Positions 1,170 to 14,279 of a stretch of DNA of 36,019 bases are shown here, piece by piece. How positions within the stretch are numbered: the first letter of the stretch is position 1; each line of letters starts with the position of its first letter. Both the position numbers and the translations under genes were made by a program. The notes beneath the pieces were generated by a model. It saw only the letters and a list, made by a program, of their open reading frames with translations. It was not told the origin of the DNA and did no database searches. Origin of the DNA: a virus (taxonomy: Duplodnaviria; Heunggongvirae; Uroviricota; Caudoviricetes); the IMG/VR virus record IMGVR_UViG_2537561980_000006; one strand, 5' to 3'.

Positions 1170-1230
1170 CTTGTTGTCTGATTATTGATTTTTCGCGAAA
1201 CCATTTGATCATATGACAAGATGTGTATCC
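1162..1230 (+). ncRNA. Predicted RNA-OUT antisense RNA of IS10 (position inferred from IS10 coordinates)
   Basis: Established IS10 biology: pOUT transcript starts ~nt 115 and runs toward the outside end, overlapping the transposase 5' end; mapped onto window coordinates, not independently detected. Confidence 0.4.
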
Positions 1231-1814
1231 ACCTTAACTTAATGATTTTTACCAAAATCATTAGGGGATTCATCAGTGCGGTGCCTGGTGCCTCCAGGTG
1301 ACGTTAACCAGTTAACAATTAACGCCGGATACAGAGAATCCACCCATAACACTGTTTTTGGTTTTAACTGTTCCGCGTGCGCTTAGCCGCATTCACCGCA
1401 TCACAAAATTCACTTTAAAAAGGGCGGCAGAGCAGTCACGGAGTAAAACTGATACCGCCAAACGTCACCAGAAAATTGATAACAGAGGGCGTTGCAGCGG
1501 GGTTGTCACTTAAGCGTATGGTCAACCTGACAACCAGGTGTCCTCAACGGGGAAGGAATAACCCCGCCATACTTACCGCCGCGCCATTTCGCGGAGTGCC
1601 ACAACCGGAAGCGCACGGCCGACGAAAATTTAACGACAGGCTATCTATGAACCAGCTACCTCGCCGTGCGCTTTCGCGTTATGGTCTGACTTTTCATGGA
1701 AATATCCTTTCAGTAAACTGTCAGTGCCGGATGCTCACCCGTGTCCGGCGCACGCACTCCACCTCACCCGTGGAGAACTCCTTAATTACCAACCTTAGCT
1801 TCGTTGGTTAGCTA

Positions 1815-3070: not shown

Positions 3071-3125
3071 CAATGATATTCGCTCTTGAATGTACTGTCA
3101 GTTCTGTTATAGCATGTACTCAAAG
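3071..3125. promoter_or_regulatory. Divergent promoter/operator region (OR-like)
   Basis: Inverted repeat TTCAA-N12-TTGAA at 3069-3090 and direct repeats of ATGTACT at 3090-3096 and 3114-3120, between the divergent repressor and cro-like genes. Confidence 0.45.
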
Positions 3126-3144
3126 TTCACATTATGAGGGTGAT

Positions 3145-3399
3145 ATGAACCAGAAAACACTTGAAGATGTAATCAAAACTGTTCGCGTTGCTGTTGTGGC
3201 CGACGTTTGTGGTGTCAGCCAAAGAGCAATCTATAAATGGATGGATAACGGAAAATTGCCTCGCACAGAATATACCGGCGAAACAAATTACGCTGAAAAA
3301 ATCGCTCTTGCATCAAACGGATTATTTTCTGCCGATGCAATTTTAACTATTGGCAGGAATAAAACTACTACGAAAAAGCTGATGGGAGTTGATTCATGA
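3145..3399 (+). CDS. Cro-like HTH regulator (YdaS-like)
   Basis: ATG at 3145 after GAGGG RBS; contains HTH-like VADVCGVSQRAIYKWMDNGKLP. Confidence 0.65.
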   Translation: MNQKTLEDVIKTVRVAVVADVCGVSQRAIYKWMDNGKLPRTEYTGETNYAEKIALASNGLFSADAILTIGRNKTTTKKLMGVDS

Positions 3400-3821
3400 A
3401 AATCAAGCATGAACACATCCGCATGGCGATGAATGCCTGGGCGCATCCGGACGGCGAAAAAGTACCGGCTGCGAAAATTACCAAAGCGTATTTCGAGCTG
3501 GGAATGACGTTCCCGGAACTGTATGACGACAGCCATCCGGAAGCCTTGGCTCGCAATACCCAGAAAATTTTCCGCTGGGTAGAGAAAGACACCCCTGATG
3601 CAGTTGAAAAAATTCAGGCGTTGTTACCAGCGATCGAAAAGGCAATGCCACCTTTGCTGGTGGCCAGAATGCGCAGCCACAGTTCAGCTTATTTTCGGGA
3701 GCTGGTGGAGACGCGGGAGCGATTGGTGAGAGACGCTGATGATTTTGTCGCAGTGGCAATCGCCGGTTTCAATCAGATGAACCGTGGTGGCCCGGCAGGA
3801 AATGCTGTGGCAGTACATTGA
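3396..3821 (+). CDS. CII-like regulator (YdaT-like)
   Basis: 141-aa ORF starting MKIKHEHI.., start overlaps the cro-like stop; position and N-terminus resemble Rac-type YdaT as I recall it. Confidence 0.55.
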   Translation: MKIKHEHIRMAMNAWAHPDGEKVPAAKITKAYFELGMTFPELYDDSHPEALARNTQKIFRWVEKDTPDAVEKIQALLPAIEKAMPPLLVARMRSHSSAYFRELVETRERLVRDADDFVAVAIAGFNQMNRGGPAGNAVAVH

Positions 3822-8825: not shown

Positions 8826-9085
8826 CTAATCGTTATGTCAATTAATTACAATAACGACTTATCATGGTGAGCAAAAACGGTTTGCGGGAAAAGGAGAGTT
8901 AAGTAGAATTGCTGCGGGTGCTTGAGGCTATCTGCCTCGGGCATGAACACCAAAAGGCAGATAGAGAAAAGCCCCAGTTAACATTACGCGTCCTGCAAGA
9001 CGCTTAACATTAATCTGAGGCCCAATCTATGTCTCACAAATGTAGGTTAGCCTCTTACGTGCCGAAAGGCAAGGAGAAGCAGGCT

Positions 9086-9241
9086 ATGAAGCAGCAAAAG
9101 GCGATGTTAATCGCCCTGATCGTCATCTGTTTAACCGTCATAGTGACGGTACTGGTAACGAGGAAAGACCTCTGCGAGGTACGAATCCGAACCGGCCAGA
9201 CGGAGGTCGCTGTCTTCACAGCTTACGAACCTGAGGAGTAA
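9086..9241 (+). CDS. Hok/Gef-family type I toxin (51 aa)
   Basis: MKQQKAMLIALIVICLTVIVTVLVTRKDLCEVRIRTGQTEVAVFTAYEPEE: single TM helix and the conserved Hok C-terminal region; in-frame upstream extension from 9029. Confidence 0.8.
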   Translation: MKQQKAMLIALIVICLTVIVTVLVTRKDLCEVRIRTGQTEVAVFTAYEPEE

Positions 9242-11415: not shown

Positions 11416-11775
11416 ATGCGTATAGAGTTTGTTTTGCCTTATCCGCCGACGGTGAATACTTACTGGCGACGTCGTGGCAACACATATTTTGTATCAAAAG
11501 TCGGTGAGCGTTATCGCCGTGATGTGGCACTAATTGTTCGCCAGCAGCGGTTGAAATTAAACCTGTCCGGAAGGCTGGCAATAAAAATTATTGCAGAGCC
11601 ACCGGATAAGCGCCGCCGCGACCTGGACAATATCCTGAAGGCACCACTGGATGCGCTGACGCATGCCGGACTTCTCATAGACGACGAGCAGTTTGATGAA
11701 ATCAATATTGTGCGCGGACTGCCTGTTCCTGGTGGTCGGCTGGGGATAAAAATCACAGAACTGGAGTGCGCATGA
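11416..11775 (+). CDS. rusA: Holliday junction resolvase RusA
   Basis: 119 aa with RusA-family features (TVNTYWRRRG.., DKRRRDLDNILKAPLDALTHAGLLIDDEQ). Confidence 0.8.
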   Translation: MRIEFVLPYPPTVNTYWRRRGNTYFVSKVGERYRRDVALIVRQQRLKLNLSGRLAIKIIAEPPDKRRRDLDNILKAPLDALTHAGLLIDDEQFDEINIVRGLPVPGGRLGIKITELECA

Positions 11776-12461
11776 ATAACCAGTATTTACAGTTTGTGCG
11801 TGAGCAGCTCATTATCGCTACCGCTGATTTGAGTGGGGCAACAAAAGGTCAGCTTGAAGCCTGGCAGGAGAATGCCATGTTTGATACAGGGCGTTACAGG
11901 CGTAAAAAAATCCGGTACCGCGATGAAGTGACTGGAAGAATGATAACGCGGGATAGTCCACCGATACCGGGAAAACAATCACTGGCGAAAGGCTCATCAA
12001 TTGCTCTGGTAAGTCAGGTTGAGTTTTCGACATCATCATGGCGACGGGCAGTTCTGTCTCTTGAAGAACATCATAAAGCCTGGTTGTTGTGGTGTTACAG
12101 CGGGAGTATTTGTTGGGAATATCAGATCGCGATAACACAGTGGGCGTGGAATGAATTTAATACTCAATCCGGTACCAGAAAAATTGCAGGGAAAACGCAG
12201 GAACGCCTGAAAAAATTAATCTGGCTGGCGGCGCAGGCATTAAAAGCAGAACTTTTTGGTGGGGAAGGTTATGAATACCAGGAGCTGGCATTACTGGCGG
12301 GAGTGACAACTAAAAACTGGTCCAAAACATTTACTCGTCACTGGGTTGCAATGAAACACATTTTTCACCGACTTGATAGTGAGGCTTTATTGTTTGTAAT
12401 GAGAACACGTTCAAAACAAAAGGCGGCATTTTCAAAGCAAAGTGTTGCAAAAGTAGATTGA
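11772..12461 (+). CDS. Late-gene antiterminator, Q-type (QuuQ-like)
   Basis: 229 aa directly upstream of a promoter / short transcript / terminator and the lysis and morphogenesis genes; family assignment by position and size. Confidence 0.55.
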   Translation: MNNQYLQFVREQLIIATADLSGATKGQLEAWQENAMFDTGRYRRKKIRYRDEVTGRMITRDSPPIPGKQSLAKGSSIALVSQVEFSTSSWRRAVLSLEEHHKAWLLWCYSGSICWEYQIAITQWAWNEFNTQSGTRKIAGKTQERLKKLIWLAAQALKAELFGGEGYEYQELALLAGVTTKNWSKTFTRHWVAMKHIFHRLDSEALLFVMRTRSKQKAAFSKQSVAKVD

Positions 12462-12473
12462 AAGGCATATATT
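12445..12473 (+). promoter_or_regulatory. Candidate late promoter (pR'-like)
   Basis: TTGCAA (12445-12450), 17-nt spacer, TATATT (12468-12473), at the 3' end of Q. Confidence 0.4.
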
Positions 12474-12524
12474 TCATGCAAATCTGATATTTTGCCGATT
12501 TTGTACGTGATGGCAAAAGCAAAC

Positions 12525-12551
12525 AAAACCCGCCCACAAGCGGGTTTTTTG
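12525..12551 (+). terminator. Intrinsic terminator (tR'-like)
   Basis: CCCGC-CCACAA-GCGGG flanked by A4 upstream and T6 downstream. Confidence 0.6.
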
Positions 12552-12617
12552 TGCCACTTATCTCGGATAGACATGGTGAATGCGCTGGTGGAGGAGATAA
12601 GGGTGATTTTTGAATGC

Positions 12618-12646
12618 TTGCAACATTGATTTCGTAACGTTATTAT
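12618..12646 (+). promoter_or_regulatory. Candidate promoter for the tRNA cluster
   Basis: TTGCAA (12618-12623), 17-nt spacer, TATTAT (12641-12646), ~9 nt before the first tRNA. Confidence 0.4.
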
Positions 12647-12655
12647 CCTGCGCCC

Positions 12656-12731
12656 GGCCCTTTAGCTCAGTGGTGAGAGCGAGCGACTCATAATCGCCAG
12701 GTCGCTGGTTCAAATCCAGCAAGGGCCACCA
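12656..12731 (+). tRNA. tRNA with CAU anticodon (Ile2-lysidine type or Met)
   Basis: Cloverleaf folded by hand: acceptor GGCCCTT/AAGGGCC, loop CUCAUAA, T-loop TTCAAAT, 3' CCA; close to E. coli ileX-type sequence as I recall it. Confidence 0.8.
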
Positions 12732-12732
12732 G

Positions 12733-12809
12733 CCGCCACTAGCTCATCAGGAAAGAGCGTCAACCCTTTAAGTTGAGTGTGCGAGGTTCGAGTCCCCGGT
12801 GGCGGTCCA
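12733..12809 (+). tRNA. tRNA with UUU anticodon (Lys-like) and unusual C at position 33
   Basis: Acceptor CCGCCAC/GTGGCGG, anticodon stem TCAAC/GTTGA, loop CCTTTAA, T-loop TTCGAGT, 3' CCA. Confidence 0.6.
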
Positions 12810-12811
12810 GT

Positions 12812-12887
<76 letters not shown>

Positions 12888-12890
12888 TAT

Positions 12891-12965
<75 letters not shown>

Positions 12966-13232
12966 GCAGAGGACGATTGATACTAGGTTGTGTTAGGCAC
13001 TGACACATTTTATGTGGGGCGTTTTTCCTGACTCCTTACCTCGCCCTGTACTGTAAGGAGTGATATCGCTTGCAGCACCAGTGCCATTTTTTACGTCACC
13101 GGAATGGTGCATTATTGGTAGAGATTTGCAATGTTTCTGGCAGGGGCCGATGATGCATCATTCTGGTGTTGTAAATAACACCATGACATTGAGATTAATC
13201 ATATATTAAGCAAAACCTGGAAATGCATCCTT

Positions 13233-13258
13233 AACCGCCTCTATCGGGCGGTTTTTTT
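13233..13258 (+). terminator. Intrinsic terminator
   Basis: AACCGCC-TCTATC-GGGCGGTT then T7. Confidence 0.6.
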
Positions 13259-13581
13259 ATTCTGAACTCAGAAAAGAATACACGGGCATTGATATTACCC
13301 GTGTGGCAAGGCCATGAAAGCTAATAATGAACTGAGCGCAAAAAAAGCGCGGCTGTCGGATTAACGCCGCGGGACAAAGTCCGTGAAGAAGAATAAGCAT
13401 CAGTCTCCTCCAGGAGACGATTTGATATTACTAAGCTTTAAAAATGGTTTAAATCCCCGGATTAACCTTAATTTCAGATAAGCTTTATTTCATTTTCTCC
13501 GAGCCACGTCAGGCGCACATCACATCAGATAACACCACATAAAAGGCATCTGCGGGTGTCTTTGATGGGGTGTTTTTTTAC

Positions 13582-13606
13582 GGGCCGCTGGTGGCCCTTT
13601 TTTATT
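13582..13606 (+). terminator. Intrinsic terminator upstream of the lysis genes
   Basis: GGGCC-GCTGGT-GGCCC then TTTTTTATTT. Confidence 0.55.
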
Positions 13607-13621
13607 TACAGGAGAAAAAGT

Positions 13622-14014
13622 ATGTCTGAACCCTTATCCGGTTCCGGCACGGCTGCGGCGCTCGGCGGGGCGACGGTGTACGGGTTGTTTACCGGAACGG
13701 ATTTCGGGATTGTGTTTGGTGCGTTCGCCGGGGCGTTATTTGTGGCAACGATGCCGCAGGCGCTTTCAGCCTGGCGTGTGGCGGCGCATTTTCTGGTGTC
13801 GTTCATTATCGGTGTGCTGGGCGCAGAGGTTCTGGCATCCTGGCTGGTAAAGCATACAGGGTTTGACGGAGCGCCTGTCGACGCATTGTGTGCAGTGCTG
13901 GTGTCAGTGGTGTCGGTGAAGATTCTGTCGTTCATCCACCAGCAGGATATTGCATCGCTGGTGTCCGGCCTGTTCTCCCGCCTGCGGGGTGGAGGAGGCG
14001 GCAATGTTAAGTAA
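13622..14014 (+). CDS. Putative holin (multi-TM membrane protein, 130 aa)
   Basis: ATG at 13622 after GGAGAAAAAG; several hydrophobic segments; first gene of the lysis cassette. Confidence 0.5.
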   Translation: MSEPLSGSGTAAALGGATVYGLFTGTDFGIVFGAFAGALFVATMPQALSAWRVAAHFLVSFIIGVLGAEVLASWLVKHTGFDGAPVDALCAVLVSVVSVKILSFIHQQDIASLVSGLFSRLRGGGGGNVK

Positions 14015-14279
14015 CCTTCCCGGATTGCTGAATGTGGCGTTATGCACGGTTATCGTGCTGACGCTCTTTTTTTATCGTCGCCGTGATTCCAGACATAAAC
14101 CGCTGATGTCATGGCTGGCCTGGCTGCTGATGCTGCTGTATGCCTTTGCGCCCCTCAGCTATCTGTGTGGTCGCCCATTAGCAACGGGCTGGCTGGAAGT
14201 GTTTTTTAATCTGCTGTTCTGCGTGCTGGTAATACGCGCACGCGGGAACGTCGCAAGAATTTTTCCATTGTTGAGGTGA
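14004..14279 (+). CDS. Putative lysis-associated membrane protein (91 aa; holin/antiholin-like)
   Basis: ATG at 14004 after GGAGGAGG; 2-3 hydrophobic segments; overlaps the upstream gene end. Confidence 0.45.
   Translation: MLSNLPGLLNVALCTVIVLTLFFYRRRDSRHKPLMSWLAWLLMLLYAFAPLSYLCGRPLATGWLEVFFNLLFCVLVIRARGNVARIFPLLR

Follow-up and report, generated by a model that had tools for sequence, protein, structure and literature searches.

The interval at positions 12966-13620 of the window analysed here (the whole 36,019-nucleotide stretch of the virus record IMGVR_UViG_2537561980_000006, a lambdoid prophage) separates the transfer RNA (tRNA) genes from the lysis genes, and is probably a conserved, mobile, non-coding module of the late region in lambdoid and P27-type prophages, acting at the RNA level. 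The arrangement that we favour, predicted from sequence and folds and held with moderate confidence, is a convergent pair of small RNAs (sRNAs) with insulating terminators at the moron site; in each individual transcript our confidence is lower than in the overall picture. A first-pass annotation of this DNA had suggested that the interval may encode small RNAs, and this suggestion is now backed by strand-specific conserved RNA structure on both strands. The features are collected in Table 1.

On the plus strand, the evidence for structure centres on hairpin A. Its minimum free energy is -43.7 kcal/mol (z-score -5.5), which none of 200 shuffles equalled; the reverse complement gives -22.8 kcal/mol (z -1.1). 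Pairing is kept at 99% for the 29 consensus pairs over 29 distinct variants, against 31-56% in controls in which the pairing partner was slid. Fourteen of the pairs alternate G·U with G-C or A-U, and in two both bases have changed. A tally of the per-pair counts places G·U in 180 of the 841 cells of the alignment, and these become A·C mismatches if read on the other strand.

The region from hairpin A onwards ends at terminator T1 (-12 kcal/mol, z -3.8, followed by U7), the stem of which is kept in all relatives with a loop that is free to vary. The terminator scan and the alignment of relatives revealed no conserved terminator between tRNA-Gly and T1. A hairpin at 12989-13007 was considered as a terminator directly after tRNA-Gly and rejected, being weak and broken in a relative of 88% identity (L001). 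Between hairpin A and T1 lies module B, for which alignment and folding found no consensus structure in its short form. In most relatives, the short form is replaced by a different, structured segment of about 125-150 nt. This long form (for example at 2241-2388 of locus L005) has a closing stem GAGGCG...CGCCUC and internal hairpins with compensatory changes. The L005 copy gives a full-length but sub-threshold match to the sRNA STnc100 (17.5 bits, E 0.3), and the long module B may be a distant STnc100/PasD-like sRNA.

At the other end of the interval stand the tandem terminators T2a and T2b, just before the holin gene. Read on the plus strand, the alignment of the T2 family has 76 G·U cells and an alignment fold of -19.9; for the minus strand the values are 2 and -7.7. 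The first-pass annotation had listed two strong intrinsic terminators in the interval. Both are real, at 13233-13253 and 13582-13597, each with its U run, and to them T2a is added as a third on the plus strand. T1, T2a, T2b and, on the minus strand, H2 all consist of a G+C-rich stem-loop passing directly into a U run, and for the terminators tested the direction of the G·U pairs agrees with the transcribed strand. The terminator scan found 10 terminator-like sites in 12300-14100, compared with 2.1 ± 1.6 in shuffled sequence.

When 27 distinct variants are aligned in minus-strand orientation, six helices comprising 35 pairs emerge, running from 13445 to 13281 (the H2 stem of the window itself extends to 13280). 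The helices are paired in 99.5% of cells, with slid controls at 36-50%, and in eight pairs both bases have changed. None of 500 shuffles reached the covariation score of 0.267 (shuffles give 0.159). Read as a minus-strand RNA, 937 of 942 cells are standard pairs, compared with 872 of 942 read as plus; for G·U the counts are 67 and 2. The inverted repeats noticed in the first-pass annotation belong to this minus-strand RNA: ACACGGG/CCCGTGT is present at 13280-13304, and GTCTCC/GGAGAC is present too, but at 13403-13418 and not at 13409-13424.

The minus-strand RNA has two features that resemble ends. H2 folds with -14.4 kcal/mol (z -4.2) and has eight pairs, two of them compensatory, with 20 G·U on the minus strand against 1 on the plus; in relatives its tail is stronger, a run of 7 to 9 U. 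H3, together with the small hairpin and the GGAC hairpin on either side of it, is paired in 100% of cells with compensatory changes at three pairs. Every sequence type has a long U run after at least one of H3 and H2. Since H3 is followed by U7 and H2 by a U-rich tail, the sequence therefore contains two predicted minus-strand intrinsic terminators that face T1. Most of the E. coli matches span 13456 down to 13340 (positions 1-117 of the query), stopping just past H3 and its U run.

Within this RNA, the nearly invariant stretch CUUAUUCUUCUUCA(C/U) is a candidate seed. The consensus fold leaves it unpaired, unlike the single-sequence fold of the window, which pairs it with H4. A search of the window for a second site complementary to it gave matches at chance level. 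A candidate promoter for the minus strand has a -35 hexamer TTTAAA (13453-13448), a 17-nt spacer and a -10 hexamer TAATAT (13430-13425). It matches the consensus at 8 of 12 positions and was missed by the promoter scan; its hexamers are invariant save for the third base of the -10.

The interval is widespread. Pieces of it occur in 285 of 5,426 complete E. coli genomes (megablast), and the central 195 bp in 492 of the 5,426 (blastn). Near-identical copies (at least 99% identity, megablast) are found in eight genomes, mostly of porcine enterotoxigenic E. coli (ETEC) including UMNK88. The most conserved 24-mer is present in 110 IMG/VR prophage contigs and, in a set of species-representative genomes, in one E. 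ruysiae genome. The only deposited phages with most of the interval are SerU-LTIIb and vB_EcoS-683R6; phiP27 and a few others have only its last ~90 bp in common. The sequence identity of the relatives is 74-99%.

When the module architecture was sorted over 111 distinct loci, the same order recurred: tRNA-Gly, A, B (in its short or long form), T1, C1, C2, optionally a TerB-DUF3927 cassette, T2 and the holin gene. Pieces of the interval are always flanked by the phage tRNA-Gly and holin genes, and module A stands directly after tRNA-Gly in almost all relatives. The order is the same before two unrelated holin types, the P27 type and the essD type, and upstream of the tRNAs the relatives have either Q or a DNA methyltransferase. 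The non-coding block thus travels together with tRNA-Gly between prophages whose backgrounds otherwise differ.

It is worth adding that phage SerU-LTIIb has two copies of the tRNA-Gly/spacer/holin unit (1201-2031 and 3107-3743). The first is the full A-to-T2 module. In the second, blastn and alignment detected only module A, a T1-like terminator and T2, and the C block is missing. A 54-nt piece with 87% identity to the GGAC hairpin and H3 of the minus-strand RNA is found in E. coli E2348/69 variety 2 (locus L124, 2501-2554), in an unannotated gap between zinT and a tRNA-Ser gene that we take to be serU (the annotation says tRNA-Ser only). It is probably a prophage remnant and is uninformative.

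The arrangement suggests how the module might work. A plus-strand transcript leaving tRNA-Gly would fold hairpin A, pass the AU-rich stretch and meet T1. Polymerase starting at PR' or at the tRNA promoter in the lysogen, not being modified by Q, would stop at T1 and release a trailer RNA made up of hairpin A, the AU-rich tail and the terminator, which could be cut into a small RNA, for instance by RNase III at the long stem. The minus-strand RNA, of at least ~150 nt from 13445 or further right to ~13270, would be an independently transcribed small RNA, and its CU-rich conserved stretch may act in trans. T2a and T2b would keep read-through from T1, or transcription started in cargo, out of the lysis genes, and after induction the Q-modified polymerase would pass all of the terminators. 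The joint between the RNA module and T2, at 13525/13529, would serve as the exchange site for cargo such as TerB-DUF3927.

This joint is where the first-pass annotation's comparison with Shiga toxin phages applies. It had described the interval as the slot in which such phages carry stx, and for the P27 type this holds: phiP27 has tRNAs, then stx2eA/B, then the same pre-holin block (92.5% identical over 13529-13620) and a homologous holin. In about 19 of the 111 relatives (~17%), genes for a TerB-family protein and a DUF3927 protein are inserted between 13525 and 13529; in strain 504838, for example, this insertion is ~690 bp. The cargo-free form is in the majority (~83% of sampled loci), and the window itself has no cargo gene. 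Because relatives carry TerB-DUF3927 there and phiP27 carries stx2e, the slot exists but is empty here. The cassette (3550-4232 in L001) is bounded by imperfect direct repeats of ~20 bp, GCGCACATCAAAAACCAC and GCGCAAATCTGAATAACACCAC, so that gain and loss of cargo are indistinguishable. At least three types of junction occur among the cargo-free relatives, one of which (L006) retains the last codons of DUF3927, GCGCAAATCTGAATAA. The varied junctions suggest repeated exchange at the joint; the pattern would fit repeated loss and recombinational exchange equally well. Just to the left of the joint is a small hairpin (13501-13516), GCGCC...GGCGC in relatives and weaker in the window (GAGCC...GGCGC), with compensatory variants GCGTC/GACGC and GCGCT/AGCGC among the relatives.

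The first-pass annotation had also raised the possibility that the interval is a scar of cargo loss, meaning that an ancestral TerB-DUF3927 or toxin cassette was deleted and left its untranslated flanks. The cassettes of relatives sit exactly at the joint, the junctions are of several types with a DUF3927 end surviving in one of them, and phiP27 has stx2e upstream of the same T2 block, all of which would suit such an origin. However, the direct repeats make insertion as possible as deletion, and most sampled loci are without cargo. Whichever of the two took place, it would affect a 4-bp joint, leaving unexplained the 560 bp of conserved, structured sequence on the left of the joint, unchanged whether or not cargo is present. 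As the principal explanation of the interval, loss of cargo is therefore most improbable. We consider it unlikely, too, that the conserved core encodes a 32-residue plus-strand protein (13383-13481) made from the late transcript, perhaps as part of a type I toxin-antitoxin-like pair with the antisense RNA. Among 66 aligned variants, 63 keep the frame open up to the same stop; it is intact in 78 of 100 loci, the pairwise ratio of non-synonymous to synonymous polymorphism (pN/pS) is 0.36 compared with 0.58 and 1.16 in the other two frames, and there is a GGGA 8 nt upstream of the start. Nevertheless, the remaining 22% of copies are disrupted (20 loci frameshifted, two with an internal stop), and the indels fall within the H4 hairpin, where they are tolerated by the RNA. 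On a spanning tree there are 40 synonymous to 58 non-synonymous events, and the variable sites are spread 17/9/16 over the codon positions, which by our own arithmetic gives a chi-square of ~2.7 and is not significant. Among the variants seen in one or a few sequences are radical replacements, for example L to P and R to I, that have no effect on the RNA helices. No membrane segment is present in the peptide, and a tblastn search of 50,697 phage records matched only two phages, which share the DNA module, with no protein-level relatives beyond the same DNA family. Finally, H2 and its neighbouring hairpin, which have the minus-strand signal, fall outside the reading frame.

Several points do weigh against a convergent sRNA pair. 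All the transcript ends of the module are predicted, and no promoter in the interval exceeds the scan threshold on either strand. The best candidate for a minus-strand promoter overlaps helix 1, which itself has the minus-strand RNA signal, and the variation in H3 and the GGAC hairpin is never informative about strand. The counts of covariation overstate the number of independent events, because a few haplotypes have been reshuffled by recombination. Part of the conservation in H4 and helix 1 could be due to the 32-codon frame, which overlaps both. No Rfam family matches, so there is no homology to a validated sRNA. Some of these points, namely the want of a promoter above threshold and of a known RNA family, would be expected of a plain insulating spacer, in which only the terminators matter and the rest is conserved by recent ancestry and recombination, without a functional small RNA. 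The terminators are indeed the strongest features, and identity among the relatives is high, with variation in few haplotypes. Ancestry, however, leaves unexplained why ~64 predicted pairs are 99-99.5% paired against 31-56% in slid controls. Nor does it account for the strand bias of the G·U pairs, which is towards the plus strand for hairpin A and T2 and towards the minus strand for H2, H4 and helix 1. Two minus-strand terminators would make no sense without minus-strand transcription, which further disfavours this explanation. The first-pass annotation had allowed for a conserved plain spacer found in many phages; while many prophages do conserve the interval, it is no plain spacer, and a purely insulating role has in our estimate a low probability, though not a negligible one. 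The convergent sRNA pair remains the preferred explanation.

The predicted layout is of the same kind as that of the moron-site pairs of enterohaemorrhagic E. coli (EHEC) and of the Pas sRNAs, and the predicted RNAs match no described family. In many EHEC prophages, the moron site downstream of the Q-antiterminated promoter PR' carries convergent sRNA genes, among them that of AsxR, which is antisense to the transcript of stx2 (Tree et al., 2014; PMC4104026). The EHEC anti-sRNAs AsxR/EcOnc02 and AgvB/EcOnc01 (with partners such as EcOnc27) lie, like the module here, downstream of Q and PR', by the cargo slot and before the next phage gene. Both layouts have two units on opposite strands with facing terminators, one unit being antisense to the late or toxin transcript, although here the units are predicted. 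AgvB and AsxR are 51-60 nt long, whereas the RNAs predicted here are ~80-175 nt, and unlike in the EHEC pairs the plus-strand partner follows a tRNA array and has an 86-nt hairpin. The Rfam models of AgvB (RF02702) and AsxR (RF02703) gave no match at the gathering score in the whole window, nor any up to E = 10 in 12400-13700.

The Pas sRNAs of enteropathogenic E. coli (EPEC) prophages lie directly beside the holin-lysozyme operon, near TerB and DUF3927 genes (Pearl Mizrahi et al., 2021; PMC8550237). For these and STnc100, the comparison draws on Zhu, Shabalina and Storz (2026; bioRxiv 10.64898/2026.05.13.724894). PasA and PasC lie immediately before the holin, on the strand opposite to the late operon, and here too the interval runs up to the start of the holin; PasD/STnc100 follows DUF3927 closely and in sense orientation. 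Each of these sRNAs ends in a terminator hairpin and a U run, as do the RNAs predicted here. The holin in the window is of the P27 type, unlike that at the Pas loci. A blastn comparison (7-nt words) with the Pas loci of E2348/69 found no similarity in the interval. An unfiltered search with a covariance model of the minus-strand RNA (R1) found nothing at the loci for PasA, PasC and PasD (L010-L012; best hit 8.4 bits, E 1.3), and the covariance model of this RNA likewise found nothing in phiP27 or in the DLP12 prophage of K-12. The Rfam model of STnc100 scored 123.6 bits in a control locus (L011), and was absent from the window and its relatives save for the 17.5-bit trace in L005.

When all of Rfam was searched, across the whole window at gathering scores and across 12400-13700 with permissive settings, only the tRNAs passed within 12400-13700. 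Weak matches of the CyaR (13189-13258; 23.5 bits against a gathering score of 47, E 0.16), isrK and microRNA types were rejected as generic hairpin or terminator shapes. The DLP12 sRNA IpeX was also rejected as a lead: DLP12 of K-12 gives only a 24-nt match at chance level (E 0.084) to the terminator before the tRNAs, and nothing in the interval. IpeX, moreover, adjoins nmpC, which is a different position.

Two further comparisons are useful. Like the window, phiP27 has tRNAs, a slot, a homologous pre-holin block, holins, an M15 endolysin, an HNH endonuclease and a P27-family terminase. Unlike the window, it has stx2eA/B and a minus-strand hypothetical gene in place of modules A to C, so that only the T2 block is common to both. 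A tRNA-operon trailer is reportedly the source of an sRNA sponge, 3'ETS-leuZ, the 3' external transcribed spacer of the glyW-cysT-leuZ operon, in work ascribed to Lalaouna et al. in 2015. The predicted plus-strand unit of the module resembles it in running from the last tRNA to the first strong terminator, and in ending with an AU-rich single strand, a terminator hairpin and a U run. It differs in being much longer (~290 nt), in its long hairpin and in being phage-borne.

More speculatively, the module may consist of two undescribed regulatory RNAs that travel with tRNA-Gly in ~9% of E. coli strains, including porcine ETEC: a tRNA-operon trailer, built around the 86-nt hairpin, that would be processed into an sRNA of the Hfq type, and a convergent sRNA that would use the seed CUUAUUCUUCUUCA to regulate mRNAs of host or phage or to sponge a core sRNA. 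We put this forward as a tentative proposal. A bolder variant of it would have the antisense RNA and the 32-codon frame form a type I toxin-antitoxin-like guard at the entrance of the lysis cassette.

The wider interest lies in the position. AsxR, AgvB and the Pas sRNAs, at this same position, rewire host regulation in pathogenic E. coli, and few such families are known. The module is a widespread further candidate, present in ~5-9% of complete E. coli genomes, many of them from pig, poultry and cattle and including porcine ETEC such as UMNK88, and its location is the very point of exchange for toxin and stress cargo (stx2e, TerB-DUF3927). Should the RNAs be expressed, they would be new candidate regulators in ETEC and in avian pathogenic E. 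coli (APEC), and would make the trailer of a phage tRNA operon an RNA gene. The tandem terminators would explain the silence of lysis genes that lie beside constitutively transcribed tRNAs and cargo. For annotation, the implication is that the hypothetical proteins which some genomes have annotated over this stretch are spurious.

Table 1. Predicted features of the interval and its immediate surroundings (positions in the window; minus-strand elements within the cells are given 5' to 3')
Feature	Position	Strand	Description and basis
Sigma-70-like promoter	12618-12646		Upstream of the tRNA array; promoter scan
tRNA array	12656-12965	+	CAT, Lys-TTT, Thr-TGT, Gly-TCC; ARAGORN, Rfam tRNA
Linker from tRNA-Gly to hairpin A	12966-13089	+	Variable among relatives (alignments)
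Hairpin A	13090-13175	+ only	Long, nearly perfect 86-nt stem-loop
Module B, short form	13176-13232	+	Unstructured, AU-rich; between hairpin A and T1
T1	13233-13260	+	Intrinsic terminator; first strong stop after the tRNA array
H2	stem 13304-13280, U-rich tail 13279-13266	-	Predicted intrinsic terminator, converging on T1; scan, fold
Middle of minus-strand RNA	13304-13382	-	Small hairpin 13314-13304, H3, GGAC/GUCC hairpin 13382-13372
H3	hairpin 13371-13348, then U7 13346-13340	-	Predicted second minus-strand terminator (sequence, fold)
Nearly invariant stretch	13383-13402	-	CUUAUUCUUCUUCA(C/U); between H4 and the GGAC hairpin; unpaired in consensus fold
32-codon open reading frame	13383-13481	+	Would encode MKKNKHQSPPGDDLILLSFKNGLNPRINLNFR; GTG start here, ATG in most relatives
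H4 and helix 1	H4 13418-13403, helix 1 13445-13427	-	G·U 15 and 28 (minus) against 1 and 0 (plus)
Module C2, right part	13446-13528		AT-rich, conserved, ending at the joint 13525/13529; alignment, architecture table
T2a	13531-13579	+	Compound hairpin and U run, intrinsic terminator; -21.6 kcal/mol, z -5.8
T2b	13582-13603	+	Intrinsic terminator; scan and fold; ends 7 nt before the holin Shine-Dalgarno AGGAG

In the order of genes around the interval, the Q antiterminator (11766-12461) comes first, followed by the four tRNAs, the interval itself and, from 13622, two holins and an M15 endolysin. E. coli CV839-06 has a 99.8% identical locus that is annotated alike, with the interval left without any called gene. 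Just 3' of Q is a promoter-like site (12445-12473; TTGCAA, 17 nt, TATATT), and ~50-75 nt further on there is a hairpin with a T run (12525-12548). The scan listed this terminator on the minus strand; in the plus-strand reading, the same hairpin is followed by TTTTTTGTG. The stretch 12445-12550 resembles a PR'/tR' short transcript, and has weak sub-threshold Rfam matches to isrK and isrJ (22.7-24.5 bits, E 0.02-0.06), which are RNAs of the Gifsy-1 prophage. The first tRNA (12656-12731, anticodon CAT) is tRNA-Met according to ARAGORN and tRNA-Ile in near-identical genomes; the latter label presumably reflects lysidine modification, as in ileZ of Stx phages.

The first-pass annotation had found no open reading frame (ORF) of 60 or more amino acids (aa) on either strand of 12966-13620. 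This is true inside the interval, with exceptions at the edges only: a GTG-started upstream extension of the holin ORF (13556-14014), which runs through T2b and is an artefact, and a minus-strand ORF beginning at 13606. The true start of the holin is the ATG at 13622, behind AGGAG at 13610-13614. The annotated holin of phiP27 is lengthened at its start in a similar way (435 nt, compared with 393 nt here). The longest part of the window without an ORF of this size is 12575-13555 (981 bp), the runner-up being 306 bp. Since no such ORF occurs in 45% of shuffled versions of the interval either, its absence is compatible with a non-coding region but is not improbable, and by itself proves nothing.

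The 16-aa micro-ORF at 13314-13364 that had been pointed out earlier does exist, but it is not conserved, close relatives reading ATG TAA or lacking the ATG. A 47-aa minus-strand ORF (13257-13400) was rejected, its ATG being ATA in most relatives and its internal A-run varying in length. The long hypothetical proteins (79, 103 and 132 aa) called by the Prokaryotic Genome Annotation Pipeline (PGAP) or by submitters in relatives were rejected as well, as they read through terminators including T1 and are found in a minority only.

The motif TGTACTGT, which was placed at ~13070 and thought to echo the operator motif, is actually at 13047-13054. There is one further copy in the window (3091), and because 15 of 100 shuffles reach two or more copies, the resemblance is a chance match. 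A pairing of 13491-13499 with the ribosome site of the holin, as an anti-Shine-Dalgarno element, was rejected, since relatives having the same holin do not keep it. Inspection by eye and the promoter scan found no convincing plus-strand promoter in the AT-rich C2 block.

Finally, Rfam identifies other RNA genes in the window: the sok antisense RNA of a hokD-type module (8916-9091), RNA-OUT of IS10 (1162-1231) and DicF on the minus strand (1422-1473). The second-longest ORF-free stretch of the window (1170-1475) houses the last two of these.

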